Origin: Candidatus Iainarchaeum sp.
GTDB taxonomy: Archaea > Nanobdellota > Nanobdellia > Pacearchaeales > GW2011-AR1
Reading direction: 5' to 3'
Assembly: GCA_043815085.1 (NCBI GenBank)
Contig: JBDRJG010000001.1
Span: forward strand, 1,594 to 65,593
DNA: 64,000 bases
Each line of letters opens with the position of its first letter. Position 1 is the first letter of the stretch. The translations under genes and the position numbers were made by a program. The notes under the pieces are model-generated. The model did not search any database, was not told where the DNA came from, and was given only the letters and a program-made list of their open reading frames with translations. This document shows, piece by piece, positions 9,564 through 31,394 of this stretch.

Positions 9564-9605
9564 TAATAAAAGAATATTTTTTATTATATATAAATATACT
9601 GAAAG

Positions 9606-10307
9606 CTAATTGGAAGCGATTTTTTGTCTTTTTTTCGTCTTTTTGAAAAAGAGAAAATACAAAAATCCCAATAAAAGAGCAGTTAAATAAATTATTGCAA
9701 TTCCCAAGAATATTTTAAACAAAAGAGGATTCTTCCCAATTTCTTTTCCAAAGTATGTCTGGATGAAAATTGCAGGAGCCAGTCCTAAAAGTGTCCATAT
9801 TAAGAATTCCCGTAATTTCATCTTTGTTAGGCCGGCAAGATAACTCCAGATATCTGAAGAAGTTAAAGGATTTACTCTAAGAATAAATATTGAAAGTTTT
9901 CCGTATTTGTCAGAAAAAGCATCAAATTTATCAATATGCTTTTTTTCTATTTTTTTCTCCACAAAAGCCCTTCCATATATCCTAGCAATTTTGAATGCAA
10001 TTGAAGAACCGATTGCTACCCCAATCATTATGAGAATCCACGAGACATAAGGCCCAAAAACAATTCCTCCAGCTACGTAAAAGAAAAATGGATGAATCGG
10101 AGCGAGAACAATCCCTGCAATAATCAAGAGAATATAAATTAAAAAAGAAATTCCTTTAAATGAAGAGATAAAAAGAATCATCTCTTCCTGATTAAAATTT
10201 ATTAAAGAATAAAAAAACCCTCTTGTAATATAAGAATATAATAGAAATCCCAAAATAATAAGGAAAATAGCAAAAATTATCCAATCAATTAATCTCTTTT
10301 TACGCAT
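9606..10307 (-). CDS. DedA/TVP38 family membrane protein (paralog 2, tandem duplicate)
   Basis: 233 aa. It is collinear with 8850-9563 (YVAGGIVFGPY; RVNPLTSSDIWSYLAGLTKMK). Confidence 0.7.
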   Translation of the reverse strand: MRKKRLIDWIIFAIFLIILGFLLYSYITRGFFYSLINFNQEEMILFISSFKGISFLIYILLIIAGIVLAPIHPFFFYVAGGIVFGPYVSWILIMIGVAIGSSIAFKIARIYGRAFVEKKIEKKHIDKFDAFSDKYGKLSIFILRVNPLTSSDIWSYLAGLTKMKLREFLIWTLLGLAPAIFIQTYFGKEIGKNPLLFKIFLGIAIIYLTALLLGFLYFLFFKKTKKRQKIASN

Positions 10308-18156: not shown

Positions 18157-18455
18157 GACACAATGTTAACGAAAAAGTTTTGAAGAAAGGAATTGAAGAA
18201 ATTTTCAAAAAGAACATAAATAATGCAGAAAAAGAATTAGCCACACGATTAGAAGAGAGTAAAAATGAAACAGATAAAAAGGTGTTTGATTATTCTTTTA
18301 AAAATTTATATGATGTCAAAGAAAGATATCTTTCTTTGGTAAGTGCTGTCTCACATTATTTAGATAAAAATAAAATAAAAAAATATGAAGCTGAAATAGA
18401 TAATATGATAGATGAAAAAATTAGGGAATTAAAAAATTATATGGATAGTAAATAA
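18153..18455 (+). CDS. hypothetical K/E-rich protein (100 aa) inserted between rpl3 and rpl4
   Basis: Its ATG overlaps the L3 stop (ATGA). Predicted helical, charged protein. Not a known r-protein family. Confidence 0.5.
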   Translation: MRHNVNEKVLKKGIEEIFKKNINNAEKELATRLEESKNETDKKVFDYSFKNLYDVKERYLSLVSAVSHYLDKNKIKKYEAEIDNMIDEKIRELKNYMDSK

Positions 18456-18469
18456 AAGGGAATACAAAA

Positions 18470-19264
18470 ATGAAAGCAAAAGTATATGATACAAATGGAA
18501 AAGAAAAATCTCAGGTAGAACTTCCTAAAGAATTTTCTGCTGTTATTCGAGAAGATGTTGTTGCAAAGGTTCTTGAAACAAAGAAAAAACAGCAACCTTA
18601 CTCTCCATCTCCTGTTGCTGGAAAACAGCATTCTGCAAAAGGAAAAGTTAGACATAAAAGACACGTCTGGAGAAGCGGTTATGGAAGAGGTCAATCAAGA
18701 GTTCCAAGAAAAATATTTTCAAGAAAAGGTTCTCAATTCATTTGGCAAGGAGCTGAAGTCCCCCAAGCAAGAGGGGGTATGAGAGCGCATCCTCCAAAGG
18801 TTGTACAATTCTTAAGAGATTTAAAAATAAACAAAAAAGAACTGAGAATTGCTTTTGAATCTGCATTGAGTTCAACTGCAAATGAAAAATATGTTCTAAA
18901 AAAATATTCTAATCTTGAAAAAATTGATAAAAAAGTCCCATTAGTTCTTGTCTCAAACATTACAGAATTGAAAATAAAAGAACTGCTTAATGCATTAAAG
19001 AATATTCTTGGAAAAGAATTATTTGGGATAGCAATAAGAAAGAAATCTGTTCGAGCAGGAAAAGGAAAACTTCGAGGAAGAAAATATAAATCTAGTGCTG
19101 GAATGCTTTTTGTTTTAGGAAATAATGAAAAATTAAAAACAAATGCATTTGAAGTAAAAAGAGTCAAAGAACTAAATGTATTTGATTTAGCTAAAGGTGG
19201 TCTAGGAAGATTAACAATTTACACTGAAAAAGCAATTAGAGATTTAGGAGAAAAAAGAAAATGA
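18470..19264 (+). CDS. rpl4: ribosomal protein uL4
   Basis: 264 aa. Archaeal L4 signature (SWGTGRAVARIPRV-like region: HSAKGKVRHKRHVWRSGYGRGQSRVPRK). Confidence 0.9.
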   Translation: MKAKVYDTNGKEKSQVELPKEFSAVIREDVVAKVLETKKKQQPYSPSPVAGKQHSAKGKVRHKRHVWRSGYGRGQSRVPRKIFSRKGSQFIWQGAEVPQARGGMRAHPPKVVQFLRDLKINKKELRIAFESALSSTANEKYVLKKYSNLEKIDKKVPLVLVSNITELKIKELLNALKNILGKELFGIAIRKKSVRAGKGKLRGRKYKSSAGMLFVLGNNEKLKTNAFEVKRVKELNVFDLAKGGLGRLTIYTEKAIRDLGEKRK

Positions 19265-19503
19265 ACCTAAAACCATTAGCAACTGAAAAAGCAATAATGA
19301 AAATAGAAGCTGAAAATATTTTAACATTCGTAACTGAATTAAAAGCGACAAAATCTGAAATAAAAAAGGATATTGAAGAATTATTCAGGGTCAAGATTGA
19401 TAAAATATCCACTCAAATAAGAAACAATCAAAAGATTGCTTATGTTAAATTAAACAAAAAAGATCTTGCAATTGATGTTGCAACTAAATTGGGATTGATG
19501 TAA
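19261..19503 (+). CDS. rpl23: ribosomal protein uL23
   Basis: 80 aa. Conserved L23 fold signature. Operon position between L4 and L2. Confidence 0.85.
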   Translation: MNLKPLATEKAIMKIEAENILTFVTELKATKSEIKKDIEELFRVKIDKISTQIRNNQKIAYVKLNKKDLAIDVATKLGLM

Positions 19504-19504
19504 A

Positions 19505-20200
19505 ATGGGAAAAAGAATAATTCAACAAGCGCGCGGGCACGGAAGTATGACTTATCAGGCAAAGAAAAAATCTTTTGTCTATAAAATTCAATATCCAAGG
19601 AAACTCCAAGGAGAAGGAACAGTTATAAAGTTGATAAATTCTTCTGCACATAGTGCGCCACTGGCTAAAGTCTTGTACAATGAAGGAAGTTTCTACATTC
19701 CTGCCTTTAAAGAAATGGTTGAAGGCCAAAAAATTTCTTTTGAAGGGGAATTGAAAAATGGGAGCATTCTTCCTCTGGAAAAGATACCAATTAAAACATT
19801 TATATACTGCATTGAATCTCGCCCGGGAGATGGGGGAAAATTTATTAAAACAGCTGGAAGCAATGCGATTGTAACAAGAGTTGTTGGAAATCAGATTTTA
19901 GTTTTAATGCCTTCAAAAAAGGAAAAAAAATTTAATCCAAAATGCAGAGCAATAATAGGGCAGATTGCAGGACATGGAAGATTAGATAAGCCAATTATAA
20001 AGGCCGGAAAAATGCATTATATTAAAAAATCAAAAAATAAATTATGGCCTAGAACAAGCGCAGTTAAAATGAATGCAATAGATCATCCTTTTGGTTCGGG
20101 TAGAGGAAAGAATATTAAGAGCAAAATTGCAAAGCGAAATGCACCTGCTGGAAGAAAAGTTGGCTTAATTAGACCAAAAAGAACAGGTAAAAAGAAATAA
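19505..20200 (+). CDS. rpl2: ribosomal protein uL2
   Basis: 231 aa. MGKRIIQQARGHGS at the N-terminus and the conserved AIDHPFGSGRGKN motif. Confidence 0.9.
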   Translation: MGKRIIQQARGHGSMTYQAKKKSFVYKIQYPRKLQGEGTVIKLINSSAHSAPLAKVLYNEGSFYIPAFKEMVEGQKISFEGELKNGSILPLEKIPIKTFIYCIESRPGDGGKFIKTAGSNAIVTRVVGNQILVLMPSKKEKKFNPKCRAIIGQIAGHGRLDKPIIKAGKMHYIKKSKNKLWPRTSAVKMNAIDHPFGSGRGKNIKSKIAKRNAPAGRKVGLIRPKRTGKKK

Positions 20201-20201
20201 A

Positions 20202-20507
20202 ATGGAAATAACAAATATGTATAATACTTTGAACGGAAATGAATGTCAAAAACATTTAGAAAAGTTAATTAAAAATGAAGCAGAAGGGAGAATAGTAATT
20301 TGGGGGCACAAACATAAAATTGATGTTGAGGATAGCAACACTTTTCATAACATAGCTCAAGAAATGAAGGTCAAAAATATTAACAATTTTTGTGGAGGGT
20401 TACATTATATTGGAGAGGTTGAAAAAGAACTTTGGACAATTTGCCTAGATGATGAATTAAATCAAGCTTTTTTAGACAAATATGGGGAGGAATATCAAAT
20501 TAATTAA
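20202..20507 (+). CDS. hypothetical protein (101 aa) inserted between rpl2 and rps19
   Basis: It starts 2 nt after the L2 stop. The first codons MEIT and 18 nt around the start are identical to the start of rps19 (direct repeat 20199-20216 / 20505-20522). Cys/His-containing. No known family. Confidence 0.5.
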   Translation: MEITNMYNTLNGNECQKHLEKLIKNEAEGRIVIWGHKHKIDVEDSNTFHNIAQEMKVKNINNFCGGLHYIGEVEKELWTICLDDELNQAFLDKYGEEYQIN

Positions 20508-20508
20508 A

Positions 20509-20904
20509 ATGGAAATAACAAAAAAACAAATTACATATAAGGGAAAGACTATTGAAGAGCTGAAAGCCTTGGATGTTCGTGAATTTGCCAAATATCTTCC
20601 GTCAAGAGGAAGGAGAAGTGTTCTCAGAAATTTCCAGAAAATTGAATATTTTACTAAGAGAGCAAAAGAGAAAATTGAAAGAGGAAAAAAGATAAAAACT
20701 CATAATCGAGGATTGGTTATTGTGCCCCAGCTAATCGGAATGAATATTCAAGTTCATAATGGAAGAGCTTTTTTACCTGTTCAAATTGAGCCAGAAATGC
20801 TTGGACACAGATTAGGAGAGATGGCTCTTACAAGATCAAAAGTAACACACAGTAAAGCAGGTGTTGGAGCAACAAAAGGAAGTAAACATAAGGCTAAAAA
20901 ATAA
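20509..20904 (+). CDS. rps19: ribosomal protein uS19
   Basis: MEITKKQITYKGKTIEELKAL...GLVIVPQLIGMNIQVHNGRAFLPVQIEPEMLGHRLGEMALTR matches S19. The ORF-track start at 20482 is an upstream in-frame extension. Confidence 0.85.
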   Translation: MEITKKQITYKGKTIEELKALDVREFAKYLPSRGRRSVLRNFQKIEYFTKRAKEKIERGKKIKTHNRGLVIVPQLIGMNIQVHNGRAFLPVQIEPEMLGHRLGEMALTRSKVTHSKAGVGATKGSKHKAKK

Positions 20905-20906
20905 AA

Positions 20907-21548
20907 ATGACTGAAAAAAGTTACAACCCAAATCAAAAGGAAAAAAAGGCAATGAAAAAACAGCCGAAGCAGATAGAAGCTAAACCAAAACAGCCAGAAA
21001 AAATTGAAACTCCGATAGCTGAAGCTAAACCAAAACAGGAAGAAACTGGTTCAGAAAAAACAGAAGAAAAAAAAATAGATGAAACTTCAAAAACTGAAAA
21101 ACCAGAAGAAAAAAAATCTGAATCAAAAAAACCTGCTAAAAAGATTAAAAAAGAAATTGTGATGGTGAATGCAAAAAGTGTCCCTATTTCTACAAAATAT
21201 GCAATTTATATCTGTAAATTTGTCAAAGGAAAAAGAATAGAAGATGCTATAAGAGATTTAGAGCAGGTTATACTATTAAAAAAAGTTGTTCCAATGAAAG
21301 GAGAATATGCACATCAAAAAGGAAAAGGAATAAGTGGAGGAAAATTCCCTCAAAGAGCTGCAAAATCTTTCATAGTCTTGCTTAAAAGTCTTGCAGGAAA
21401 TGCAAACAATCATGAAATCAACGAACCAATAATAACTGAAGCAATTGCGAACCAAGCTGCAATGCCCTTCGGAAGATTTGGAAGAGTGAGAAGAAAGAGA
21501 ACACACATTACAATTAAAGCAAGAGAAGCAAAGGAGAAGAAAAAATGA
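20907..21548 (+). CDS. rpl22: ribosomal protein uL22 with a roughly 85-aa K/E/P-rich N-terminal extension
   Basis: 213 aa. The C-terminal 130 aa match L22 (AKSVPISTKYAIYICKFVKGKRIEDAIRDLEQV...). The N-terminus is low-complexity (KPKQ/EEKK repeats). Confidence 0.85.
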   Translation: MTEKSYNPNQKEKKAMKKQPKQIEAKPKQPEKIETPIAEAKPKQEETGSEKTEEKKIDETSKTEKPEEKKSESKKPAKKIKKEIVMVNAKSVPISTKYAIYICKFVKGKRIEDAIRDLEQVILLKKVVPMKGEYAHQKGKGISGGKFPQRAAKSFIVLLKSLAGNANNHEINEPIITEAIANQAAMPFGRFGRVRRKRTHITIKAREAKEKKK

Positions 21549-21805
21549 ATAACATAGTAAAATACACCGCCATACAAAAAATGTTTGAATCTTCAAAAGA
21601 GTTAATTGAACAGTTAAAGAGCCCCGAGGTATTGATAAGGACTTTGAAAAAATATGTTAATGAAGGATTAGAAGCATATAAAGAAAAAAATACAGATTCG
21701 TTTCAATTTAATAATCGTTTATATCAAGTTACTTTTGACAGAGCGAAAAAAGTAGGGGTGAATATTTCGGAATATCCAATAATATTGGAGGCACTAATGA
21801 ATTAA
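21545..21805 (+). CDS. hypothetical protein (86 aa) inserted between rpl22 and rps3
   Basis: Its ATG overlaps the L22 stop (ATGA). It ends 1 nt before the S3 start. No known family. Confidence 0.5.
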   Translation: MNNIVKYTAIQKMFESSKELIEQLKSPEVLIRTLKKYVNEGLEAYKEKNTDSFQFNNRLYQVTFDRAKKVGVNISEYPIILEALMN

Positions 21806-21806
21806 A

Positions 21807-22499
21807 ATGGAAGAAAAACAAATTGTAAAATTCAAAAAAGATGAATTTGCCATTCGCGAGTCAATTAAAAAAATGCTTGGCAAAGGAAAAGTTAGCAAGA
21901 TTAGAATCGAATACACTCCAGTTGGAGAAAAAGTAATAATCTCAACAAGCAAGCCTGGCTTAATTATCGGAAGAGGAGGGGAAAAATTAAATGAGATTAC
22001 AGAGCATCTAAAGAAAAATTTCAAATTTGAAAATCTGCATATTGAAATTGAAGAAATAACCTCTCCTGAATTTGATGCGCAGATAATTGCAGATGATATT
22101 GCATTAGGATTGGAGAGATTTGGTCCATTAAAATTTAAGGTAATTGTATATCGAACACTCGAAAGAATAATGAGAGCTGGAGCACTTGGATGCGAGATAA
22201 GATTGGGGGGAAAACTTCCAGGTTCAAGAGCAAAATCATGGAGATTCGCCCAAGGATATTTAATAAAAACAGGAGATGGTGCAAAAGTTGTGGACAGAGC
22301 CCAGTCACGAGCAGAAACAAAACCTGGAACTGTTGGAATAAAAGTAAGTATACTTTCTCCGCATGCAATATTAAAAGATAAAATAGACATTAATGAAGAA
22401 TTAATAAAACAATTAAAGACAAATTCAAAAGAATTAGAGGAAAAATCAATCAAGAAAATAAAAAAATCCCGCAAAAAAATGGGAAGTAAAAAGAAATGA
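21807..22499 (+). CDS. rps3: ribosomal protein uS3 (KH domain) with a K-rich C-terminal tail
   Basis: 230 aa. KH-domain region GLIIGRGGEKLNEITEHLKKNF. Conserved SWRFAQGYLIKTGDGAKV. Confidence 0.9.
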   Translation: MEEKQIVKFKKDEFAIRESIKKMLGKGKVSKIRIEYTPVGEKVIISTSKPGLIIGRGGEKLNEITEHLKKNFKFENLHIEIEEITSPEFDAQIIADDIALGLERFGPLKFKVIVYRTLERIMRAGALGCEIRLGGKLPGSRAKSWRFAQGYLIKTGDGAKVVDRAQSRAETKPGTVGIKVSILSPHAILKDKIDINEELIKQLKTNSKELEEKSIKKIKKSRKKMGSKKK

Positions 22500-22684
22500 A
22501 ATACAAAGAAATATCAAAAATGACTCAGGAAGAAAGAGACAAAAAGATAAGAGAATTAAAAATGGAACTGATTAAATCTAAGACAAAAACTTCAAAAACA
22601 GGGAATCCTAAACAAATTAAAAAAATAATTGCAAGAATACTAACGTTCAATACCTCTAAATTGGGAGTATTGAAGAACAAATAA
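22496..22684 (+). CDS. rpl29: ribosomal protein uL29
   Basis: 62 aa helical protein. MTQEERDKKIRELKMELIKSK is the typical L29 motif. Overlaps the S3 stop. Confidence 0.8.
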   Translation: MKYKEISKMTQEERDKKIRELKMELIKSKTKTSKTGNPKQIKKIIARILTFNTSKLGVLKNK

Positions 22685-22688
22685 AAAC

Positions 22689-22988
22689 ATGGAAATAGAT
22701 CCAACAACAGGATTGCCTTTAGAGGCAATAGAATGGGAAAACCTCACAAGGGGTTCGCAAAGGATAACCGTGAAAACAGACAAAAAACGATATGGAAAAC
22801 TCGTGACTGTTATAAGTGGATTTGACAAGGGAGTCGATGTGAAGAAAATCGCAAAAAGTCTGAAAAATGAACTGGCTTGCGGTGGAACTTACAAAGACGA
22901 TAAAATAGAACTCCAAGGAGACCACATGAGAAAAATAAAACCAATTTTGGTAAGACTTGGTTTTGACAACAACTCAGTAGAGGAATAA
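22689..22988 (+). CDS. sui1: translation initiation factor SUI1 (aIF1)
   Basis: 99 aa. GKLVTVISGFDKGVDVKKIAKSLKNELACGGTYKDDKIELQGDHMRKIKPILVRLGF matches the SUI1 core. Confidence 0.85.
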   Translation: MEIDPTTGLPLEAIEWENLTRGSQRITVKTDKKRYGKLVTVISGFDKGVDVKKIAKSLKNELACGGTYKDDKIELQGDHMRKIKPILVRLGFDNNSVEE

Positions 22989-23004
22989 ACATTCAAAAAA
23001 CAAA

Positions 23005-23340
23005 ATGGCAAAAAAAGAAAAAACAAAAGTAGAAGCAAGAGAAATAGTTGAAGCTAAAATTGACAGGAGAGTGGGAACCAGGGGGAAAATATTTGAAGGT
23101 ATTGTAACTAAAAAATTTCCTAAAAGAGTTGTTATTGAATTTGAGAGAATGATTTATGTAAAAAAATATGAGAGATACGCTAAATTAAAAACAAAAATAC
23201 ACGCAAGATTGCCTAAAATTCTTGAAAAAGAAATTAATTTAGGTGATTTAATAAGAGTTCATGAATGCAGACCATTGAGCAAAATTATACATTTTGTTAT
23301 TATTTCAAAAGTTAAAGATGCCAAGGAGGTTGGAAAATGA
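23005..23340 (+). CDS. rps17: ribosomal protein uS17
   Basis: 111 aa. GIVTKKFPKRVVIEFERMIYVKKYERYAKLKTKIHAR is the S17 OB-fold signature. Confidence 0.85.
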   Translation: MAKKEKTKVEAREIVEAKIDRRVGTRGKIFEGIVTKKFPKRVVIEFERMIYVKKYERYAKLKTKIHARLPKILEKEINLGDLIRVHECRPLSKIIHFVIISKVKDAKEVGK

Positions 23341-23738
23341 AAGCTATAAGTGCACGGGGAACAGAAGCATTAAATCTTGGGGCAAATCTAATTGCAGCAG
23401 ACAATAGCGGAGCTAAGATTGTTCGACTAGTTTCAGTAAAAAAAGCAAAGGCAAAAAAAGCTAAGCAGGTTGCTGCAAAAATTGCTGACTGGGTAAAAGT
23501 TTCAGTAAGAAAAGGTGTTCCAGACATGAAAGGAAAAGTTTTCGACGCTGTTATAATAAGGCAAAAAAAACCATATAGAAGATTGAATGGGGAAAGGGTT
23601 GGATTTGAAGACAATGCAGTTGCAATATTAAAGGACGATAAAGGAAATCCAAAAGGAACTCGAATTAAAGGGCCAATTGCAAGGGAGGTTCAGGAGAGAT
23701 GGGTGCAAGTTGCCAAAATCGCTTCAATAGTATATTAA
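23337..23738 (+). CDS. rpl14: ribosomal protein uL14
   Basis: 133 aa. ADNSGAKIVRLVSV and the C-terminal GPIAREV motifs. Confidence 0.9.
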   Translation: MKAISARGTEALNLGANLIAADNSGAKIVRLVSVKKAKAKKAKQVAAKIADWVKVSVRKGVPDMKGKVFDAVIIRQKKPYRRLNGERVGFEDNAVAILKDDKGNPKGTRIKGPIAREVQERWVQVAKIASIVY

Positions 23739-23739
23739 A

Positions 23740-24177
23740 ATGAAAAAGAAATTTTCAAAACACTGGAAAGCAAGTTCTCAGCCGAGAAAACAAAGAAAGT
23801 ACAGAGCGAATGCCCCAATCCATCTCAGAAAAAAGTTTGTGAGTATAAATTTGTCAAAAGAACTTAGAAAAAAAGAAGGAAAAAGAAATCTTCCAGTTAT
23901 AAAAAATGATAAAGTAAAAATATGTAGAGGAAAATTTAAAGGGAAGGAAGGAAAGGTTCTTGAAGTTAATTTAAAAAGAGCAAAAATTATTGTTGAAGGA
24001 ATTCAGGTTAAAAAGATGGACGGCTCAAAAGCGAATGTAAAAATGCAACCTTCAAATTTGCAAATTATTGAACTTGTTGAAAGAAAAAAGAAGCAAATTA
24101 AAGAAAATAAAAAAAGTGAGAAAAAAACTATTAAAAAGGAAACAAAAGATAAAACTAAACTGGAGGAGAAAAAATGA
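23740..24177 (+). CDS. rpl24: ribosomal protein uL24 (KOW) with a K-rich C-terminal extension
   Basis: 145 aa. KNDKVKICRGKFKGKEGKVLEVN is the KOW motif. Confidence 0.85.
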   Translation: MKKKFSKHWKASSQPRKQRKYRANAPIHLRKKFVSINLSKELRKKEGKRNLPVIKNDKVKICRGKFKGKEGKVLEVNLKRAKIIVEGIQVKKMDGSKANVKMQPSNLQIIELVERKKKQIKENKKSEKKTIKKETKDKTKLEEKK

Positions 24178-24824
24178 GTCATCTAAAAAGACAATCAGTA
24201 CCAAAAAGCTGGCCTATACCAAGAAAAGGGACTACTTTTGTGGTTAAACCAAATTTTGGATTTTCAAAAGGAATGCCCCTATTGATTATTCTAAGAGACA
24301 TGCTAAAAATAGCCAAAGACAGAAAAGAAGTGAAAAAAGCTATTCATTTTAAGAGCATATTGGTAAATGGAAGAGAAGCGAGAGACGAAAGAGAAGGCAT
24401 ATTGTTATTTGATGTCATAACAATTGTTCCATCTAAAAAAAATTATAGACTTACTCTCTCTACAAAAGGAAAATTTGAATTGAAAGAAATAAAAGAAAAT
24501 GAAGCAAGTTCTAAAATAGCAAAAATTATAGGAAAAAAGATTCTAAAAGGAAAGAAAGTTCAATTAAATTTAAGTGATGGGAGAAATTTCCTTTCAGATG
24601 CAAAGTGTAGAACAAATGATTCGGTTCTTATTAATTTTAAAAAGAAAAAAATTGAAAAATGTCTTTTTCTAAGGGAAAACTCAAATGTATTTGTTTTTGC
24701 TGGAAAACATTCAGGAACAGCCGGTAAAATTGAGAAAATCAATGAAGAAAAGAAAATGGCAAGTATAGAAAAGGGTAATGAAAAAATTAATGTTTTAATT
24801 AAACAGTTTATGGTAATTGAATAA
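24174..24824 (+). CDS. rps4e: ribosomal protein S4e
   Basis: 216 aa. MSHLKRQSVPKSWPIPRKGTTFVVKP is the S4e N-terminus. Confidence 0.85.
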   Translation: MSHLKRQSVPKSWPIPRKGTTFVVKPNFGFSKGMPLLIILRDMLKIAKDRKEVKKAIHFKSILVNGREARDEREGILLFDVITIVPSKKNYRLTLSTKGKFELKEIKENEASSKIAKIIGKKILKGKKVQLNLSDGRNFLSDAKCRTNDSVLINFKKKKIEKCLFLRENSNVFVFAGKHSGTAGKIEKINEEKKMASIEKGNEKINVLIKQFMVIE

Positions 24825-25365
24825 AATGAAAGAAAAATCAAAATTAATTAAAGAGAGAGAAAACGAAAAGGAAAACCCAATGAGAAAAATAAAAATTGAA
24901 AAAATAACTCTAAGTGTAGGCGGAACCGGAGAAACCCTTGAAAAAGGCTTCAAACTTTTGAAGTTCCTGACAGGAAGAACCCCTGCAAAAATGAAATCTA
25001 GAAAAAGAATTCCAACTCTTGGAGTTAGGCCCGGACTTGAAATTGGGGCAGTTGTTACAATTAGGAAAAATGCAGGAGAATTTTTGAAGAGACTATTAAA
25101 TACATTCGATAATGTTTTAAGAAAAAAACAAATAAGTGAAAATAATTTTTCATTTGGAATAAAAGAGTATATAGAAATACCGGGAACTGAATATCAAAGA
25201 GAGATTGGAATTATGGGGTTGGATGTAAGTGTGATATTTAAAAGAACAGGAAGAAGAGTGAGATTGAAAAAAATAAAGGGGGGGAAAGTTCCTAAAAAAC
25301 AAATGATTTCAAAAGAAGAAATAATTAAATTTATGGAAGAGACTTTCTCTACGGGGTTTATATAA
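24817..25365 (+). CDS. rpl5: ribosomal protein uL5
   Basis: 182 aa. NPMRKIKIEKITLSVGG matches the archaeal L5 N-terminus. Also GLDVSVIFKR. A short extra N-terminal extension is possible; the alternative start is M22. Confidence 0.85.
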   Translation: MNKMKEKSKLIKERENEKENPMRKIKIEKITLSVGGTGETLEKGFKLLKFLTGRTPAKMKSRKRIPTLGVRPGLEIGAVVTIRKNAGEFLKRLLNTFDNVLRKKQISENNFSFGIKEYIEIPGTEYQREIGIMGLDVSVIFKRTGRRVRLKKIKGGKVPKKQMISKEEIIKFMEETFSTGFI

Positions 25366-25595
25366 TGACCGCGAGTGATTGGAAAAAAATATTGAAACAG
25401 CTCGATGCTAAACCAGTTATAAAACAGAAATATATAAAACATAATAAACCGAGAGAAAGAAAGACAGGAATTGCTGCCAAAAAATGCGAGAGATGCGGAA
25501 GATTTGGAGCACATATAAAATCATACGGATTAAATTTATGTCGACACTGCGTTAGAGGAATAGCAGTTGAAATCGGCTTTCAAAAATACAGTTAA
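25365..25595 (+). CDS. rps14: ribosomal protein uS14 (Zn-binding type Z)
   Basis: CERCGRFGAHIKSYGLNLCRHCVRGIAVEIGFQKYS is the C4 zinc-ribbon S14 signature. 76 aa including an N-terminal extension. Confidence 0.8.
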   Translation: MTASDWKKILKQLDAKPVIKQKYIKHNKPRERKTGIAAKKCERCGRFGAHIKSYGLNLCRHCVRGIAVEIGFQKYS

Positions 25596-25596
25596 A

Positions 25597-25986
25597 ATGG
25601 AAACAACAACAGAAATAAAAAATAATGAAAAAGAATATATGAAAGAAATAGATTTCCTTGGGGTGTTACAATTTCAATATTGGATAAATAAAAAATTATG
25701 TAGAGATAATCCAAATAAAGATTATGTCTTCTTAGATGAAGGACTGGGTAAAGGAGAATTTGTTAAATTGATTAAAGAAGGAGAAAAAATTATGGTAAAA
25801 ACTTTTGATATTAAGGGTTATGGTGATTTAGAAGGAAATCTAATTGAGGTTAAAACAGTAAAACAAGGGTACCCCTTAAGTGTATCTGTTTATAGAAATT
25901 TTGATAAAACAAAAGATTCTAAGAAACAACAAATTTATTATGATGCTCTTAAGAAATCTAAATTTTATAATGGAGTTAAAAACTAA
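25597..25986 (+). CDS. hypothetical protein (about 129 aa from METTTEIKNN) inserted between rps14 and rps8
   Basis: It starts 2 nt after the S14 stop and ends 2 nt before the S8 ATG. No known family. The ORF track's upstream start at 25567 overlaps S14. Confidence 0.5.
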   Translation: METTTEIKNNEKEYMKEIDFLGVLQFQYWINKKLCRDNPNKDYVFLDEGLGKGEFVKLIKEGEKIMVKTFDIKGYGDLEGNLIEVKTVKQGYPLSVSVYRNFDKTKDSKKQQIYYDALKKSKFYNGVKN

Positions 25987-25987
25987 A

Positions 25988-26368
25988 ATGTCACACGATG
26001 TAGTTGCAGACGCACTAAACATGATAAAGAATGCTCAAAAAGCTAGAAATGATACTGTTAGAATAGATAGAATCTCAAATCTACTTATAGAAATTCTTAA
26101 AATTATGAAACAGGAAAAAGCAATCAAGAAGTATAAGATTGATGCTAAGGAAAAATCAATAATGCTCACAATTGGAGAACTTGCTGAATGCAAGGCAATA
26201 AAGCCAAGATTCAGTTGCGATAAAAATCAAATAGAAAAATACAGAAGAAGATATCTGCCATCGAGAAATCTGGGAACTTTAATAATCTCCACAAACAAAG
26301 GATTAATGACCCATAAAGAAGCTCAAACTGAAAATGCGGGGGGTTGCTTAATTGCATATTTTTATTAA
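25988..26368 (+). CDS. rps8: ribosomal protein uS8
   Basis: MSHDVVADALNMIKNAQKARNDTV is the S8 N-terminus. The C-terminus is GGCLIAYFY. The ORF-track start at 25880 is a spurious upstream extension. Confidence 0.85.
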   Translation: MSHDVVADALNMIKNAQKARNDTVRIDRISNLLIEILKIMKQEKAIKKYKIDAKEKSIMLTIGELAECKAIKPRFSCDKNQIEKYRRRYLPSRNLGTLIISTNKGLMTHKEAQTENAGGCLIAYFY

Positions 26369-26369
26369 A

Positions 26370-26915
26370 ATGGTCAGAAAAAATTTACTGCAAGAAATTG
26401 AAATTCCAGAAAATGTTGAGATTGGGATAAATGGAAAAGAAATCTCGGTTAAAGGACCTGAAGGAGAAAATATAAGGAAATTTGATATTGAAAAAATTAA
26501 AATTGAGAAAAAAGATGGAAAAATAATAATTGAACATCCTTCAGCTACAAAAAAGGAAAAAAGGAAAATTAATACGATAATTGCACATCTAAAAAACATG
26601 ATTCGGGGAGTTCAGAAAAAATTTGAATATAAGCTGAAAATATGCGCGGTTCATTTTCCAATAACAATTGAGATTAAAGGGAATAAAGTATTAATTAAAA
26701 ATTTTCTCGGAGAAAAAACACCAAGAAAATGTTCTATCCCGGAAGGGGCGGAGATAGAAATTAATAAAGATATTATAACCACAAAATCAGTGAACAGAGA
26801 AATTGCAGGACAGGCTGCTGCTAATTTCGAGGCTGCAACAAGAGTAAGAAACAGAGATAGGAGAGTTTTCCAGGATGGAATTTTCATAATCAATAAAATA
26901 GGAAAAGAGATATAA
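26370..26915 (+). CDS. rpl6: ribosomal protein uL6
   Basis: MVRKNLLQEIEIPENVEIGINGKEISVKGPEGE is the tandem L6 alpha/beta domain signature. Confidence 0.85.
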   Translation: MVRKNLLQEIEIPENVEIGINGKEISVKGPEGENIRKFDIEKIKIEKKDGKIIIEHPSATKKEKRKINTIIAHLKNMIRGVQKKFEYKLKICAVHFPITIEIKGNKVLIKNFLGEKTPRKCSIPEGAEIEINKDIITTKSVNREIAGQAAANFEAATRVRNRDRRVFQDGIFIINKIGKEI

Positions 26916-26916
26916 A

Positions 26917-27327
26917 ATGGCAGAGAGAAAAAGACCCAAATTTTTAAGAAGGACTTCAGTAAGATTGTCTAAATTAGGGAAAAAAAGAAAGAAAAAACAA
27001 ATCTGGAGAAGACCCACTGGCAGAGATAATAAAATGAGAGAAAAAAGAAGAGGAAAGCCCGCTACTGTGAGCACGGGATATTCTACAGAAAAGAGTATTA
27101 AAGGAAAAATAAATGGAAAAACTCCTGTATTTGTAAAAAATATTGAAGAACTTAAAAATATAGGGAAAAATCAGATAGTAACTCTTGGAAAAATAGGAAA
27201 AAAGAAAAAAATTGAAATTGCAAAAAAGGCAAGAGAATTGAAAATTGAAATTGCAAATTTAAATATTAAAAAGTTCCTTAGGAAAAACGACAAGAAGACA
27301 GAAAATAAACAGGAGAATAAAAAATGA
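26917..27327 (+). CDS. rpl32e: ribosomal protein L32e
   Basis: 136 aa. PKFLRRTSVRLSKLGKKRKKKQIWRRPTGRDNKMR matches L32e. K-rich C-terminal tail. Confidence 0.85.
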   Translation: MAERKRPKFLRRTSVRLSKLGKKRKKKQIWRRPTGRDNKMREKRRGKPATVSTGYSTEKSIKGKINGKTPVFVKNIEELKNIGKNQIVTLGKIGKKKKIEIAKKARELKIEIANLNIKKFLRKNDKKTENKQENKK

Positions 27328-27761
27328 ACCTGAGAGCTAAAAAACAACTTGCTGCAAAGACTTTCGGAATTGGAAAAGAAAGGGTTCTTTTCATAGAAGA
27401 AAGATTAGATGAAATTAAAGAAGCAATAACAAAGCAGGATATGAGGGATTTATACAGGGATGGAGCAATAAAAATCAAAGAAATTAAAGGAAGAAAAAAG
27501 ATAAAAACAAAGAAAAGAAAGAGAAGTGCTGGAAATATTAGAAAAAATGTGAATGTAAGAAAAAGGAATTATGTCATACTTACTAGAAAACTAAGAAAAT
27601 ATGCTAAAGATTTGAAGAATAGAGGAGAATTAGACAAGAATAAAATAAAAGAAATAAGGAAAAAAATAAGAAACAAAACATTTAGAAGTAAGGCTCATAT
27701 GAAAGAGCAAATAGGAGAAAACAAACATGAAAGTCCAAAAACGAAGAAGAAGAGAAAATAA
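27324..27761 (+). CDS. rpl19e: ribosomal protein L19e
   Basis: 145 aa. MNLRAKKQLAAKTFGIGKERVLF is the L19e N-terminus. Confidence 0.85.
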   Translation: MNLRAKKQLAAKTFGIGKERVLFIEERLDEIKEAITKQDMRDLYRDGAIKIKEIKGRKKIKTKKRKRSAGNIRKNVNVRKRNYVILTRKLRKYAKDLKNRGELDKNKIKEIRKKIRNKTFRSKAHMKEQIGENKHESPKTKKKRK

Positions 27762-28215
27762 GACAGATTATCTAAAAAGATTGAAACTGCTCAAAGGAGA
27801 AAAACCCAGAATAGTATTTAGAAAAACAAATAGATATATTCTCGCCCAATATATTATTAGTAAAGAAGCTCAGGATAAGGTGTTGGTTGGAATGAATTCT
27901 AAAGAATTGAACAATTATGGCTGGCCAAAGAATGCACAAGGAAGTTTGAAATCTATTACAGCTTCATATTTAATTGGATATCTAATAGGCAAAAAAATTT
28001 CTGCAAAAAAATTAGAGAATCCTATTTTAGATAGTGGAATGAATAGGGTCTTGCACAAAAATAAAATTTATGCTTTCCTCAAGGGATTGATTGATTCTGA
28101 AGTTAAAATTAGCTGTAAAAAGGAATTATTTCCAGAAGAATCTAGAATAAAAGGAGAACATCTAAAATCTAAAATCCCTTTTCAAGAAATTAAATCAAAG
28201 ATGGAAAAATTGTAG
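27727..28215 (+). CDS. rpl18: ribosomal protein uL18
   Basis: 162 aa. KRRRRENKTDYLKRLKLLKGEKPRIVFRKTNRYILAQYI matches archaeal L18. Confidence 0.85.
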   Translation: MKVQKRRRRENKTDYLKRLKLLKGEKPRIVFRKTNRYILAQYIISKEAQDKVLVGMNSKELNNYGWPKNAQGSLKSITASYLIGYLIGKKISAKKLENPILDSGMNRVLHKNKIYAFLKGLIDSEVKISCKKELFPEESRIKGEHLKSKIPFQEIKSKMEKL

Positions 28216-28315
28216 AAATGAAAATAAGAAATTTTCTAAGTCCTCATAAATTCTGGATACAAAATCAAGAAAAAAATTTGCATTTAGAAATAAATGCTCA
28301 AGGAGATTTTGCATA

Positions 28316-29104
28316 ATGGAAAAAGAATTAGAAAAAAAAGGAATTGAAAAAGAAGAAGACGAGTACGCTGAAATTCCTGAAAAAGTCCTTGATGTTAAAG
28401 ATTTAAAAGAACTCGAACTTATGAATAAAAACAAAGCACCAGAGGAAAAGAAAGAAGGAGCAAGCGGATCCTGGATTCCTAAAACCCGTCTAGGAATTGA
28501 GGTTAAATCCGGAAAAATAAAAAATATTGATGAAATTCTAAAATTAAATAGAAAAATCCTTGAAGTTGAAATTGTGGATTATCTTCTAAACACTAAAACA
28601 GATTTACTTTCAATTGGACAATCAAAAGGAAAATTCGGAGGAGGGAAAAGAAGAGCGTGGAGACAAACTCAAAGAAAAAAGAAAGAGGGAAATGTTCCAA
28701 CATTTTCTGCAATGGCTGTTGCAGGCGATGAAAACGGACACATTGGAATAGGTTATGGAAAATCGATGGAGACTCTTCCTGCTCGAGATAAAGCGACACG
28801 AAAAGCAAAATTAAATATAATAAAAATAAAGAGAGCGTGTTCAGGATTTGACTGTGACTGCCAAGAATTACACACTGTTCCATTTAAGGTAACTGGAAAA
28901 GCCGGAAGTGTGAGAGTAACCCTCATACCTGCCTCTCAAGGAACAGGACTAGTTGTTGCAAATGAACTAAAAAAGATATTAAAACTTGCAGGAATTAAAG
29001 ATGTTTACAGTAAAACATCTGGAAAAGTGAGAACAACATTTAATTTAGCCAAGGCCTGCATGGGTGCTTTGGAGAAGACAACCTCAATGGAGAATAGAGA
29101 ATGA
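28316..29104 (+). CDS. rps5: ribosomal protein uS5 with an acidic roughly 50-aa N-terminal extension
   Basis: 262 aa. WIPKTRLGIEVKSGKI. The S5 dsRBD-like and C-terminal domains are conserved. Confidence 0.85.
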   Translation: MEKELEKKGIEKEEDEYAEIPEKVLDVKDLKELELMNKNKAPEEKKEGASGSWIPKTRLGIEVKSGKIKNIDEILKLNRKILEVEIVDYLLNTKTDLLSIGQSKGKFGGGKRRAWRQTQRKKKEGNVPTFSAMAVAGDENGHIGIGYGKSMETLPARDKATRKAKLNIIKIKRACSGFDCDCQELHTVPFKVTGKAGSVRVTLIPASQGTGLVVANELKKILKLAGIKDVYSKTSGKVRTTFNLAKACMGALEKTTSMENRE

Positions 29105-29463
29105 TATGCATAATTAGAATAAAAGGGCAAGTTGGATTAAGAAGAGATATAGTTGAAACATTGAATCGACTTAGATTGAGAAGAAAATATTCTTGTATTG
29201 TTTTGGAAAAGCCAAATGAAATTCAATTGGGAATGATAAAAAAATTGAGAGATTTTATTGCTTATGGAGAAATTAGCAAAGATACATATAAAGAACTAAT
29301 AAAGAAAAGAGGGATTAAGGATAAAAATGGAAATCTAAAACCTTTTTTTAGACTACACCCCCCTAGAAAAGGAATTGAATCTAAAAAGCATTTCGGAGTT
29401 GGAAAAGGTGTTTTAGGAAATAATGGTGAAAAAATAAATGATTTAGTATTAAGGATGTTGTAA
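29101..29463 (+). CDS. rpl30: ribosomal protein uL30
   Basis: 120 aa. ICIIRIKGQVGLRRDIVETLNRLRLRRKYSCIVL is the L30 ferredoxin-like signature. Confidence 0.85.
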   Translation: MICIIRIKGQVGLRRDIVETLNRLRLRRKYSCIVLEKPNEIQLGMIKKLRDFIAYGEISKDTYKELIKKRGIKDKNGNLKPFFRLHPPRKGIESKKHFGVGKGVLGNNGEKINDLVLRML

Positions 29464-29464
29464 A

Positions 29465-29947
29465 ATGTCATTCAAAAAAACACATAAACGAAAAAAAGTA
29501 TCAAGAATGCATGGAAAGAGTATGGGAACCCATGGATGGGGGGCGAGAAAGAAACATAAAAAATCAGGACATAGAGGAGGGACCGGGATGGCTGGTTCTG
29601 GAAAAAGAGGAGATCAAAAAACCACACTTATTACAAAATTATATGGAAACACGTACTTTGGAAAACAAGGAATTACTTCCAGAAAAACTAAAAGAGATAC
29701 TCGACAGAGAATTAATCTTGAACAAATTGATAAAAACCTTGAAAAGTATGGAAAGAAAACTGCAAAAGGATGGGAAATCAATCTTGAAAAATATAAAATA
29801 TTAGGAAAAGGGGAAATAAAAAATAAATTATTCATAAAATCTTCAGATGCCTCCAAGTCTGCATTAAAGAAAGTGAAGAAGGCTGGAGGAGAAATCATTC
29901 TTCCCAATAAAAAACAGAAAAAAGAAGAAAATTCTGAAGAGAAATAA
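29465..29947 (+). CDS. rpl15: ribosomal protein uL15
   Basis: 160 aa. GWGARKKHKKSGHRGGTGMAGSGKRG is the L15 Gly-rich N-terminus. Confidence 0.85.
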   Translation: MSFKKTHKRKKVSRMHGKSMGTHGWGARKKHKKSGHRGGTGMAGSGKRGDQKTTLITKLYGNTYFGKQGITSRKTKRDTRQRINLEQIDKNLEKYGKKTAKGWEINLEKYKILGKGEIKNKLFIKSSDASKSALKKVKKAGGEIILPNKKQKKEENSEEK

Positions 29948-30002
29948 ATCTGGATTATTGAAAAATCCCAATCTTTAAAAACTGATTTTTATTTAATAAA
30001 AA

Positions 30003-31394
30003 ATGGATTTAAGAAAGATTTTTAACTATATTCCAGAAGTTAAAAAGCCAGAGGAAAAAAAACTTGCATTTAATGTAAAACTCAAATGGACATTAATAGT
30101 TCTTGTCGCTTTTTTCATTCTTGCAAATATTTCTTTGTTCGGAATGTCAAATAATGCCCTTGAAAGATTCAAATATTTGGCAATTATACTTGGAACAGAT
30201 TTTGGTTCGATAATTTCATTGGGTATTGGCCCAATTGTTATGGCTTCTATTATCCTACAATTATTAACTGGTGCAGGAATATTAAATATAGACATCACAA
30301 CTACAGAAGGTAAAAAATTCTTTCAGGGAGTCCAAAAACTTCTTGTCTTCTTTTTCATAATATTTGAATCATGCGTTTATGTATTAATGAAAGGGCTCGA
30401 AGCAATGCCGGGATTTACAGGAATAGTTATCTTTCAACTGATGCTCGGTGGACTTGCAATATTTTACATGAATGAACTTTGTGAAAAATGGGGCTTTGGC
30501 TCTGGTGTTAGTTTGTTTATCGCGGCTGGAGTTTCATGGCATTTATTCTCTGGAGCATTTCAATTTGTAAATCAGCAAGGAGGAAATTGTTTGCTTGATT
30601 TCAAAGGAACTCCTTGTTCAGGAAGGGTTTTAGTTCTGATACAATCTCTGATAAACAAATATCCAGTAGAATTCACGTCTGCTCTTGCAGCCATAATTGC
30701 CACAGTTATAATTTTCCTAATTGTTGTTTGGGCTCAATCATTAAAAGTTGAAATTCCATTATCATTCGGGAGAATAAGAGGGTATGCTATAAAATGGCCT
30801 TTGGCATTTTTCTATGCTTCTGTTATTCCAGTAATTTTAACAGCTGCTTTGGTTGCAAACATACAATTATTTGGGGGATTGCTTGAAAACTGGGCAGGAC
30901 ATCCAACTTTCTTAGGACACTTTGTAAACGGACGCGCAGCCTCTGGTTTTGCTTTCTGGCTAGGAGATACAAATCTTCTTGAGTTAATTATAAGGGGAGG
31001 ATTTTTGCCAAGATTCTTATTACAAGGATTAACGCACATCCTTTTCTATATTGGACTTTGTACAATGTTCTCTGTATTCTGGGTTAAGACTTCTGGGATG
31101 GATTCAAAAGCACAAGCTCAAAAGATTGCTTCTTCAGGATTGCAAGTTTCTGGATTCAGACAAGACATAAGAATTTTAGAGAGCATTTTAGACAGATACA
31201 TCATGCCTCTTACAGTTATGGGGGGTGCTGCAATTGGACTTCTCGCTGCAACAACAGACCTGCTCGGTGCATTAGCATCTGGAACTGCAATACTTCTAGT
31301 TATTATGATTATGTTCCAATTTTACCAGAACATTGCACAGCAACACATGACAGACATGAATCCTACTATGCGTAAATTCATGGGCACGGGATAA
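30003..31394 (+). CDS. secY: preprotein translocase subunit SecY
   Basis: 463 aa, 10 TM. Follows rpl15 as in all archaea. Conserved plug and TM2/TM7 regions. Confidence 0.9.
   Translation: MDLRKIFNYIPEVKKPEEKKLAFNVKLKWTLIVLVAFFILANISLFGMSNNALERFKYLAIILGTDFGSIISLGIGPIVMASIILQLLTGAGILNIDITTTEGKKFFQGVQKLLVFFFIIFESCVYVLMKGLEAMPGFTGIVIFQLMLGGLAIFYMNELCEKWGFGSGVSLFIAAGVSWHLFSGAFQFVNQQGGNCLLDFKGTPCSGRVLVLIQSLINKYPVEFTSALAAIIATVIIFLIVVWAQSLKVEIPLSFGRIRGYAIKWPLAFFYASVIPVILTAALVANIQLFGGLLENWAGHPTFLGHFVNGRAASGFAFWLGDTNLLELIIRGGFLPRFLLQGLTHILFYIGLCTMFSVFWVKTSGMDSKAQAQKIASSGLQVSGFRQDIRILESILDRYIMPLTVMGGAAIGLLAATTDLLGALASGTAILLVIMIMFQFYQNIAQQHMTDMNPTMRKFMGTG

Follow-up and report, generated by a model that had tools for sequence, protein, structure and literature searches.

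The 64,000-nucleotide (nt) stretch of DNA analysed here, referred to as the window (contig JBDRJG010000001.1, positions 1,594 to 65,593), carries an archaeal S10-spc-type cluster of ribosomal protein (r-protein) genes on the plus strand at approximately 17203-31394, in the order L3, L4, L23, L2, S19, L22, S3, L29, SUI1, S17, L14, L24, S4e, L5, S14, S8, L6, L32e, L19e, L18, S5, L30, L15 and SecY. Between S14 and S8 lies ORF129, an orphan open reading frame (ORF) of 129 amino acids (aa), which is the main subject of this study. We show that ORF129 is a genuine gene under purifying selection. Taken alone, it is an ordinary orphan gene; the clade-wide pattern to which it belongs is the interesting part, with about one junction in eight across this DPANN clade holding a coupled, fast-evolving orphan gene. 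Below, L-numbers denote related loci, P-numbers denote the proteins found, and junctions (or slots) are named by their two flanking genes (e.g., S14/S8). ORF129 and its immediate surroundings comprise:

25365-25595, plus strand: S14 gene (76 aa), upstream neighbour (PF00253, E = 4.2e-07), with its stop codon TAA at 25593-25595
25593-25599, plus strand: left junction TAAAATG (S14 stop, 1 nt, ORF129 ATG), read from the sequence
25597-25986, plus strand: ORF129, orphan, 129 aa (NCBI: hypothetical protein ABIE36_00225), characterized by its open frame, its ratio of nonsynonymous to synonymous substitutions (dN/dS) and the lack of a family or structure match
25597-25806, plus strand: codons 1-70 of ORF129, the constrained N-terminal half (74% identity to the L001 orthologue; dN/dS 0.20)
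25972-25975, plus strand: GGAG, a Shine-Dalgarno-like motif for S8 within the 3' end of ORF129 (codons ..YNGVKN*), read from the sequence
25984-25990, plus strand: right junction TAAAATG (ORF129 stop, 1 nt, S8 ATG), read from the sequence
25988-26368, plus strand: S8 gene (126 aa), downstream neighbour (PF00410, E = 7.3e-24)

The ATG of ORF129 is at 25597, its TAA at 25984-25986, and the S8 ATG at 25988, which agrees with the first-pass annotation of this locus in placing the start 2 nt after the S14 stop and the end 2 nt before the S8 start; both junctions read TAAAATG with a 1-nt spacer. No Shine-Dalgarno motif was found upstream of the ORF129 start, and because of the TAAAATG geometry without such a motif, we infer termination-reinitiation coupling from S14 into ORF129. 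Only 1 nt separates ORF129 from either neighbour, too little to accommodate a separate promoter or terminator, and there are no runs of five or more T within the gene. The predicted protein contains 24 K+R and 20 D+E (isoelectric point, pI, of 8.95; net charge +4), and its amino-acid composition is otherwise normal, W, C, Y and F included.

Coding status and selection

An open frame of this length is expected by chance with P of about 4.5e-7 (base composition estimate), none of 200,000 composition-preserving shuffles of ORF129 stayed open, and the remaining two frames over the same interval contain 11 and 24 stops. We compared ORF129 with its orthologue in L001, the closest sampled relative (84% identity over concatenated r-proteins), and obtained dN 0.21, dS 0.56, and dN/dS 0.38 (95% bootstrap interval 0.22-0.62). 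An open frame exceeding chance and a dN/dS below 1 were therefore both found, and the observation that the first-pass annotation had named as fatal to its proposal, an absence of purifying selection across relatives, did not materialize. Furthermore, an independent Sequence Read Archive assembly (Logan; L002) is identical at the DNA level to L001, a Joint Genome Institute contig, over the ORF129 orthologue. The idea that ORF129 arose from faulty annotation or assembly, or is a non-coding spacer that happens to be open, draws on its lack of homologues and nothing else; given the chance estimate above and a frame kept at dN/dS 0.38 in an independent assembly, we regard it as refuted for all practical purposes.

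Constraint is unevenly distributed along the gene. Codons 1-70 show a dN/dS of 0.20 (0.09-0.44), and codons 71-129 a dN/dS of 0.70 (0.34-1.57, an interval that includes 1), compared with 0.05-0.23 for the r-protein genes in the same window-L001 comparison. ORF129 evolves at 3-7 times the rate of the neighbouring r-protein genes (dN 0.21 vs 0.04-0.16), and its dS falls inside the range of the flanking genes (0.40-2.2). Since the N-terminal 70 residues are constrained at the amino-acid level, the protein presumably does something; the C-terminal half would be nearly neutral, except where its DNA doubles as the S8 initiation region. This gradient bears on one alternative, in which ORF129 is a translated spacer whose open frame relays ribosomes from S14 to S8, its amino acids being largely free to drift. 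The dN/dS of codons 71-129 and a 3' end constrained as DNA are what such a spacer would show, but the clear amino-acid constraint on codons 1-70 is not, and a 390-nt spacer seems needless when 1-nt junctions perform the relay in most relatives. We return to this alternative with the short junction spacers below.

Homologues of ORF129

A word-indexed search of 5.8 billion proteins returned ORF129 itself and P0002 alone (64% identity, 128 aa), the gene of which sits in the S14/S8 slot of the 214-kb contig L001. Beyond these two, P0003, a repetitive helical protein of 1856 aa (summed E = 6e-8), was the sole addition from a full HMMER scan of 1.84 billion representatives, and we rejected it as a chance match. 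Its score adds up seven weak repeats, each of approximately 28 bits (23-30% identity), which align to residues 71-120 of ORF129 (25807-25960), the least conserved part; we judged this similarity to be probably due to chance, a link being still conceivable. No homologue of ORF129 was thus detected outside a narrow clade, and it is an orphan in that sense.

Family-level searches were equally negative. Pfam gave no match at E ≤ 1; NCBIfam, PHROGs and PADLOC gave nothing significant for ORF129 or for its sister inserts described below; and no nuclease, toxin or defence domain was detected in ORF129 (Pfam, PHROGs, PADLOC). Sequence and profile searches of the PDB (alignments A1 and A7) gave 0 matches at E ≤ 10, and no relatives were found among viral contigs, phage records or plasmid records. 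Hence there is no significant match to a curated r-protein model or a ribosome chain, and the earlier statement that ORF129 is not a known r-protein holds for Pfam, NCBIfam and the ribosome chains of the PDB. AlphaFold2 runs with a 2-sequence and a 9-sequence multiple sequence alignment each reached a mean predicted local distance difference test (pLDDT) score of 37, giving no usable model, and with it no backing for the beta-rich protein that the first-pass annotation had thought probable.

The S14/S8 slot across relatives

To place ORF129 in its clade, we anchored loci on S8 and mapped the window r-proteins onto them, giving 62 related genome loci and 80 metagenome loci (142 in total). The assembly from which the window derives is labelled by NCBI as a metagenome-assembled genome of 'Candidatus Diapherotrites'; the label is probably imprecise, because the close relatives recovered through S8 are all labelled Pacearchaeota, Woesearchaeota or Nanoarchaeota.

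Among the sampled loci, ORF129 is present in the window and L001/L002 only. The ten next-closest relatives after L001 (L006, L008, L003, L004, L009, L011, L005, L013, L027 and L007) have a bare TAAAATG at S14/S8, as do about half of all loci, and ORF129 therefore lacks the conserved presence throughout the lineage that is expected of an r-protein. Because it is absent from close relatives, its role appears dispensable and lineage-specific, and the product is most likely a small soluble protein with a cellular role of that kind. Elsewhere the slot holds spacers with only a Shine-Dalgarno motif, coupled mini-ORFs of 6-22 codons, or ORFs of 60-136 aa. Several of these ORFs have the first ~10 codons in common with ORF129 (M-E-T-x-T-E-I-K-K), and in the same ORFs the C-terminal codons contain the Shine-Dalgarno motif of S8 (..GGAG(G).., then 8-12 nt, then ATG), an arrangement also seen in the mini-ORF spacers. 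One group of S14/S8 ORFs, recognizable as 'M(E)T-EIKKVNNLEEL..G' (L017, L032, L036, P0008, P0009 and P0010), resembles ORF129 colinearly at the N-terminus, at an FLG-like motif and at the C-terminus. Over the body of the protein, jackhmmer gave no link to this group and hhalign gave a non-significant one (P = 0.058). A profile of the loose S14/S8 group found 9 proteins in the 5.8 billion, and of its three new members two are in the S14/S8 slot and one in the L5/S14 slot.

The series from a bare junction through a Shine-Dalgarno-only spacer and a mini-ORF to a full-size ORF is what one would expect if ORF129 had been born de novo, or from captured non-genic DNA, in an ancestral S14/S8 mini-ORF spacer and were a young gene still gaining constraint. 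The ends of ORF129 (METxTEIK.. and ..KFYNGVKN*) are like those of other S14/S8 ORFs and mini-ORFs (e.g., MKIKNKFGEIKN), no homologues occur elsewhere, AlphaFold2 gives no fold, and the guanine-cytosine (GC) content of inserts lies 4 points below that of r-protein genes. On the other hand, ORF129 has a normal amino-acid composition (W, C, Y, F) and an N-terminal 70 aa that is already well constrained, no intermediates connect a mini-ORF to the 129-aa body, the resemblance of the ends may simply reflect shared initiation-region constraints, and the similarity to the other S14/S8 ORFs does not reach significance. We consider such an origin improbable on balance.

Coupled inserts across the clade

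The first-pass annotation counted four coupled insertions in this operon, after L3, L2, L22 and S14. All four are present, but a fifth, at the L18-S5 junction, had been missed. The sister inserts of ORF129 are:

18153-18455, plus strand: coupled orphan ORF of 100 aa at the L3/L4 junction, with weakly similar ORFs in the same slot of L036 and L078 and in the L24/S4e slot of L032
20202-20507, plus strand: acidic coupled orphan ORF of 101 aa at the L2/S19 junction, with relatives in L009, L056, L068 and L069
21545-21805, plus strand: coupled orphan ORF of 86 aa at the L22/S3 junction, with an L032 homologue in the same slot (59% identity, dN/dS 0.23)
28218-28316, plus strand: 32-codon mini-cistron MKIRNFLSPHKFWIQNQEKNLHLEINAQGDFA at the L18-S5 junction, the stop of which overlaps the S5 start as TAATG

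In the genome set, where a junction was counted as occupied when 150-1200 nt separate two r-protein genes, we recorded 137 occupied junctions in 64 loci, representing 22 different slots; a same-strand ORF takes up 80% or more of the space in 121 of the 137, and an opposite-strand ORF in 7. The metagenome loci gave a similar picture, with 138 occupied junctions out of 1055 (13%), 128 of them holding such same-strand ORFs. ORF129 is therefore, as had been proposed, part of a lineage-wide set of coupled insertions. The insert load per operon ranges from 0 to 16: the heaviest loads were seen in L039 (16 of 21 junctions), L116 (13 of 22), L032 (11 of 22) and L009 (8 of 22), and many relatives have none.

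These inserts are short, diverse and largely without known domains. The 236 distinct insert ORFs fall into 185 clusters, 157 of them singletons, and only about 8 of 149 inserts carry a Pfam domain, namely four DEDD exonucleases (L4/L23), two HAD hydrolases (L23/L2), one MazG and one DUF5680. Their median length is 103 aa and their median pI 6.9, with 51% acidic, compared with a pI above 9.5 for every r-protein of the window; a transmembrane-like stretch occurs in 3 of 120. Geometrically, they follow the rules of the operon. Inserts start at +1 or -4 relative to the upstream stop in 64 of 79 cases and end likewise relative to the downstream start in 55 of 79, the same spacings that the r-protein genes use, and TAAAATG and ATGA are the two dominant junction types between two r-protein genes, from r-protein gene to insert, and from insert to r-protein gene alike. 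Sense-strand T-runs resembling archaeal terminators do not distinguish inserts from r-protein genes. Across all measurable insert pairs, dN/dS is 0.13-0.56, well below 1, bearing in mind that measurable pairs are biased to conserved ones, since a recognizable homologue is required.

Two apparent relationships among the inserts were discarded. The inserts are not degenerate copies of neighbouring r-protein genes, as phmmer returned one trivial match, a mis-split S5 start. An L14/L24 insert family of five members also proved to be an artefact, produced by starts set so far upstream that the ORFs included the conserved 3' end of L14 read in another frame; it vanished after start trimming. A stable L4/L23 resident was also noted, a 3'-5' exonuclease of the DEDD type (RNase T / Rv2179c-like), 211-245 aa long and with 50-57% identity among members (L018:2831-3568, L037:2981-3676, L054:2564-3199 and L056:1914-2552; seven members when metagenome loci are included), which is the best candidate among the inserts for a true translation- or RNA-related recruit. 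In the literature consulted, we found neither variable coupled ORFs nor the mini-cistron described for the r-protein operons of DPANN archaea, which does not mean that no description exists; a paper on the Asgard r-protein cluster mentions only mis-annotated hypothetical proteins (PMC10833476).

From the four insertions, it had been suggested that this lineage systematically recruits extra small proteins into its translational core, and phylogenetic co-occurrence of the inserted proteins had been offered as a check. Co-occurrence was not seen. Relatives of ORF129 are in L001/L002, those of the L2/S19 insert in L009, L056, L068 and L069, that of the L22/S3 insert in L032, and those of the L3/L4 insert in L036 and L078 and in another slot of L032. 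Systematic recruitment is accordingly not supported, because the four window inserts do not co-occur, the S14/S8 junction is bare in the ten next-closest relatives after L001, the inserts are unlike r-proteins in charge, 157 of the 236 are singletons with same-slot occupants often unrelated even in close relatives, those with known domains are housekeeping enzymes (DEDD exonuclease, HAD, MazG), and at least one insert has been exchanged horizontally (see below).

The narrower form of that proposal, that ORF129 itself is a new lineage-specific r-protein or ribosome-associated factor (for assembly, hibernation or modulation) and a partner of the small subunit, deserves separate consideration. 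By its junction geometry, ORF129 would be co-transcribed and translationally coupled with S14 and S8, the protein is mildly basic (pI 8.95), residues 1-70 are under purifying selection, its relatives of known context, including the distant S14/S8 group, are all in the spc operon, and SUI1, a non-ribosomal translation gene, already resides there. Against this, ORF129 is missing from the ten genomes that follow L001 in relatedness, its dN exceeds that of the r-protein neighbours, its family has no more than 9 members among 5.8 billion proteins, no match was obtained to r-protein models or to ribosome chains in the PDB, and the class to which it belongs is neutral to acidic, mutually unrelated, and inclusive of HAD and MazG enzymes. 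We therefore consider a ribosomal role for ORF129 rather unlikely.

Turnover, exchange and mobility of inserts

The L2/S19 insert at 20202-20507 provides the clearest history of a single insert. Members of its family with known context all lie directly upstream of S19. An 18-nt perfect direct repeat, TAAAATGGAAATAACAAA, brackets the insert at 20198-20215 and 20505-20522, and because of this repeat the first four codons of the insert (MEIT) duplicate the start of S19. Between the window and L009, the insert is 81% identical and the r-proteins only 74%; its dS is 0.37, compared with 0.8 to more than 2 for all twenty r-protein genes. A block of 83-97% DNA identity runs from ~19890 to ~20475, i.e., from the 3' third of L2 through the insert, ending at S19. 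On this pattern, the block is a recombination tract and the insert is younger than the split of its genome from L009, and the interval 19890-20522 looks like a recombination or insertion scar. Recombination through the flanks was thus seen for this insert, and the dS of ORF129 (0.56) is within the range of its own flanks.

Occupants also turn over between close relatives. The window and L001 differ by 16% in their r-proteins, and ORF129 is the only one of the five occupied slots that the two have in common. In genome pairs at 76-85% r-protein identity, same-slot ORFs are often unrelated, with protein z-scores of about 0 and DNA z-scores below 3, compared with z-scores of 5-28 for true orthologues at the same distance; from this difference, the unrelated same-slot ORFs point to replacement or independent gain, not drift. 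Unrelated occupants therefore lie between the same conserved flanks, as in a variable-occupancy hotspot. Moreover, 26 of 102 homologous insert pairs are in different slots. A clear case of slot change is a conserved orphan family of 153-162 aa with the motif YLHSLIMPNPQN, a dN/dS of 0.13 and no Pfam domain, which is found at two junctions: L19e/L18 (L018:11676-12143, L031:3795-4262, L045, L053 and L055) and L3/L4 (L035:2516-3004 and L044:2774-3259).

Slot changes and the horizontal transfer of a sister insert raise the question of whether ORF129 could be cargo of a dedicated mobile element (integron-like cassette, homing-endonuclease-type or toxin-antitoxin) that targets stop/start junctions. 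The 18-nt repeat flanking the sister insert would agree with this, as would the duplication of at least 9 nt of the downstream gene start in 3 of 86 inserts (0 of 1137 controls) and identical junction strings on both sides in 28 of 76 inserts, where 23% were expected. Several observations speak against it. No nuclease, integrase or toxin domain occurs in ORF129 or the sister inserts; apart from the 7-nt TAAAATG, which every coupled gene requires, 25597-25986 is not bracketed by repeats, direct or inverted, and attC-like and terminal inverted repeats in particular are absent; searches of viral, phage and plasmid sequences gave no relatives; and no tRNA, integrase or repeat was seen to mark the insert sites (Rfam scan, repeat search). 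A dedicated element behind ORF129 is highly unlikely.

Mini-cistrons at short junctions

Shorter spacers between r-protein genes show a second layer of organization. Of those measuring 18-149 nt, 108 of 135 hold a mini-ORF coupled at both ends, compared with 22 expected from shuffles (z = 22.7). One DNA family accounts for 62 of 138 spacers, in 40 loci and 12 different slots, and the window mini-cistron at 28218-28316 belongs to it. The encoded peptide is 18-20 codons long with the consensus MKANQRFSFIQNKxxGGYFK (MKANQRFSFIQNK..GGYFK), its start overlapping the upstream stop and its stop overlapping the downstream start (e.g., L017:7556-7613, L032:6622-6679 and L011:4345-4399/7680-7727). No consensus RNA structure was found for the family. 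Of 16 occurrences of the strict core motif, 15 fall within the clusters and the other lies beyond the mapped genes at the edge of a contig, so that the mini-cistron appears confined to the r-protein cluster. The window copy represents a '..GDFA*' subtype, and its 3' module AGGAGATTTTGCATAATG recurs in L003, L006, L011 (three junctions), L077, L080 and L149.

Two side observations concern the same elements. L003 (2962-3018) and L006 carry, at L2/S19 and without the 101-aa insert, a mini-ORF of 15-16 codons, MKNK(K)FFK..KLGDFA, of the same family. In L026, three spacers (6543-6637, 11302-11406 and 9604-9731) contain two or three tandem copies of a module combining a Shine-Dalgarno motif and a start, GATAAAAAnCAGGAGnnTTTTCATAATG, which suggests local duplication of initiation regions. 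We also considered, and dropped, the notion that mini-cistrons are split by cargo, as the large inserts do not contain mini-cistron motifs. The mini-cistron may act as a relay element through its translation, or may be a small mobile element.

The prevalence of doubly coupled mini-ORFs in short spacers (80% vs 16% expected) is an argument for reading ORF129 as a translated relay spacer, and same-slot occupants of close relatives that have diverged beyond recognition would be in keeping with it. The DNA-level tests, however, favour replacement over drift for these unrelated same-slot ORFs. Together with the constraint on codons 1-70 and the sufficiency of 1-nt junctions, this renders the relay spacer a poor explanation of ORF129, and we assign it a low probability.

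Other features of the cluster

The Pfam S14 model spans only residues 28-76 of the upstream neighbour, and the 27-aa N-terminal extension (25365-25445) is kept in L001. SUI1/aIF1 (22689-22988) lies between L29 and S17, with no RNase P Rpp29-like ORF there, and the arrangement is the same in L001. L22 has an N-terminal extension of ~85 aa rich in K, E and P (20907-21170), which is present but diverged in L001 and contains a 25-nt tandem-like repeat (20976-21000 and 21021-21045). The Rfam scan of the window returned a tRNA-Ser as the sole match.

Interpretation

Weighing the above, we consider it slightly more probable than all other readings combined that ORF129 is an operon-riding, taxonomically restricted accessory gene in the S10-spc operon of a Pacearchaeota-like DPANN archaeon. 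ORF129 would be transcribed with the operon, its 1-nt junctions leaving no space for separate transcription signals. Ribosomes terminating on S14 would restart 1 nt further on, at TAA-A-ATG, into ORF129, the 3' end of which would then provide GGAG and a second TAA-A-ATG, handing ribosomes to S8. More generally, the stop/start junctions of the operon serve as permissive slots. Small, mostly orphan ORFs enter and leave them, replace one another and move from slot to slot, and recombination through the conserved flanks of r-protein genes can carry them from one lineage to another. Three properties might explain why such genes persist: the slot would guarantee expression, imprecise deletions or nonsense mutations in an occupant would harm essential downstream genes, and the conserved flanks would permit spread. 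The excess of doubly coupled mini-ORFs in short spacers (108 of 135 vs 22 expected) agrees with this sheltering and relay idea.

The data themselves show the anatomy and coupling geometry of ORF129, the selection on it, its narrow distribution, the turnover of the whole insert class and the horizontal exchange of one sister insert. Several points weigh against this reading. The sheltering and relay arguments, like the expression route of ORF129 and any protein-level function, are proposed from sequence comparison, and a dN/dS of 0.13-0.56 shows that the proteins matter, not open frames alone. ORF129 itself bears no scar or signal of horizontal transfer; since there is no sign of transfer and its dS is within the range of its flanks, a simple history of vertical descent plus losses could also account for it. 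The sampled members of the ORF129/S14/S8 group and of the L2/S19 family are all inside the r-protein operon, and such operon-only occurrence would also fit a functional tie to translation. Lastly, neither AlphaFold2 run produced a usable model of ORF129.

A bolder version of the accessory-gene reading may be put forward tentatively, as a possibility well short of an even chance. Its parts are meant to be taken together. The junctions might constitute a protected nursery and exchange market for new proteins, in which open frames are guaranteed transcription and coupled translation, are shielded by essential neighbours, and spread via the r-protein flanks; ORF129 might be a young gene, born or captured in the S14/S8 slot, and some residents, ORF129 possibly among them, may bind the ribosome and give rise to strain-specific ribosome variants; and the mini-cistron (MKANQRFSFIQNK..GGYFK), found at 12 kinds of junction, might represent a relay element of a new type, translated between cistrons.

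The S10-spc cluster is usually seen as an invariant syntenic block and provides a standard phylogenetic marker set for uncultured archaea and bacteria. The junctions described here offer a natural system for the origin, persistence and movement of orphan genes with flanks that can be aligned across genera, and because the flanks are alignable, gain, loss, replacement and recombination tracts become datable. They also raise a testable idea, namely that open frames are sheltered by their translational coupling to essential genes, and that this coupling promotes the birth of genes. A note of caution follows for annotation, as an 'extra' ORF in an r-protein operon need not encode a ribosome component. 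For ORF129, the practical conclusion is a modest one: the gene is real but looks dispensable.

Comparison with known systems

Several known systems resemble the arrangement described here. Phage morons and hyperplastic regions likewise consist of small orphan ORFs between conserved syntenic genes, with high turnover and horizontal exchange. Morons typically carry their own promoter and terminator, whereas ORF129, with its 1-nt junctions, depends on the host operon transcript, and no phage relatives were found. Integron cassettes are also promoterless, co-oriented and diverse single ORFs expressed from an upstream promoter; in contrast, no attC-like repeats were found at ORF129, and the inserts are interleaved with essential genes instead of forming an array.

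Among ribosomal systems, lineage-specific archaeal r-proteins are known from ribosome proteomics and cryo-electron microscopy, e.g., the Sulfolobus-specific L45a, L46a and L47a. These proteins are small, taxonomically restricted, and without homologues outside their clade, as is ORF129; however, they were defined in ribosomes and occur clade-wide, whereas ORF129 is known from its sequence and is missing in close relatives. Non-ribosomal residents of the archaeal S10-spc cluster are also well known, including aIF1/SUI1, RNase P Rpp29, SecY and adenylate kinase. Like ORF129, they are non-r-protein genes embedded in an r-protein cluster, and SUI1 is at L29/S17 in the window and its relatives. Unlike ORF129, which occurs in two sampled genomes, evolves faster and belongs to no family, these residents are ancient, widely conserved and of known function.

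Flexible-gene integration hotspots and islets between conserved core genes are known from bacterial pangenomes. In both cases, variable and often orphan genes lie between syntenic conserved flanks and close relatives carry unrelated occupants; evidence of exchange by homologous recombination through the flanks was seen here for the L2/S19 insert. The DPANN junctions differ in that up to 16 of 21 junctions are filled, the occupants are co-oriented and joined by 1-nt or 4-nt-overlap coupling (64 of 79 on the left, 55 of 79 on the right), and no tRNA, integrase or repeat was seen to mark the sites. Overall, the pattern is closest to such flexible-gene hotspots between core genes, from which it is set apart by its location inside one essential, translationally coupled operon and by its single-gene grain.

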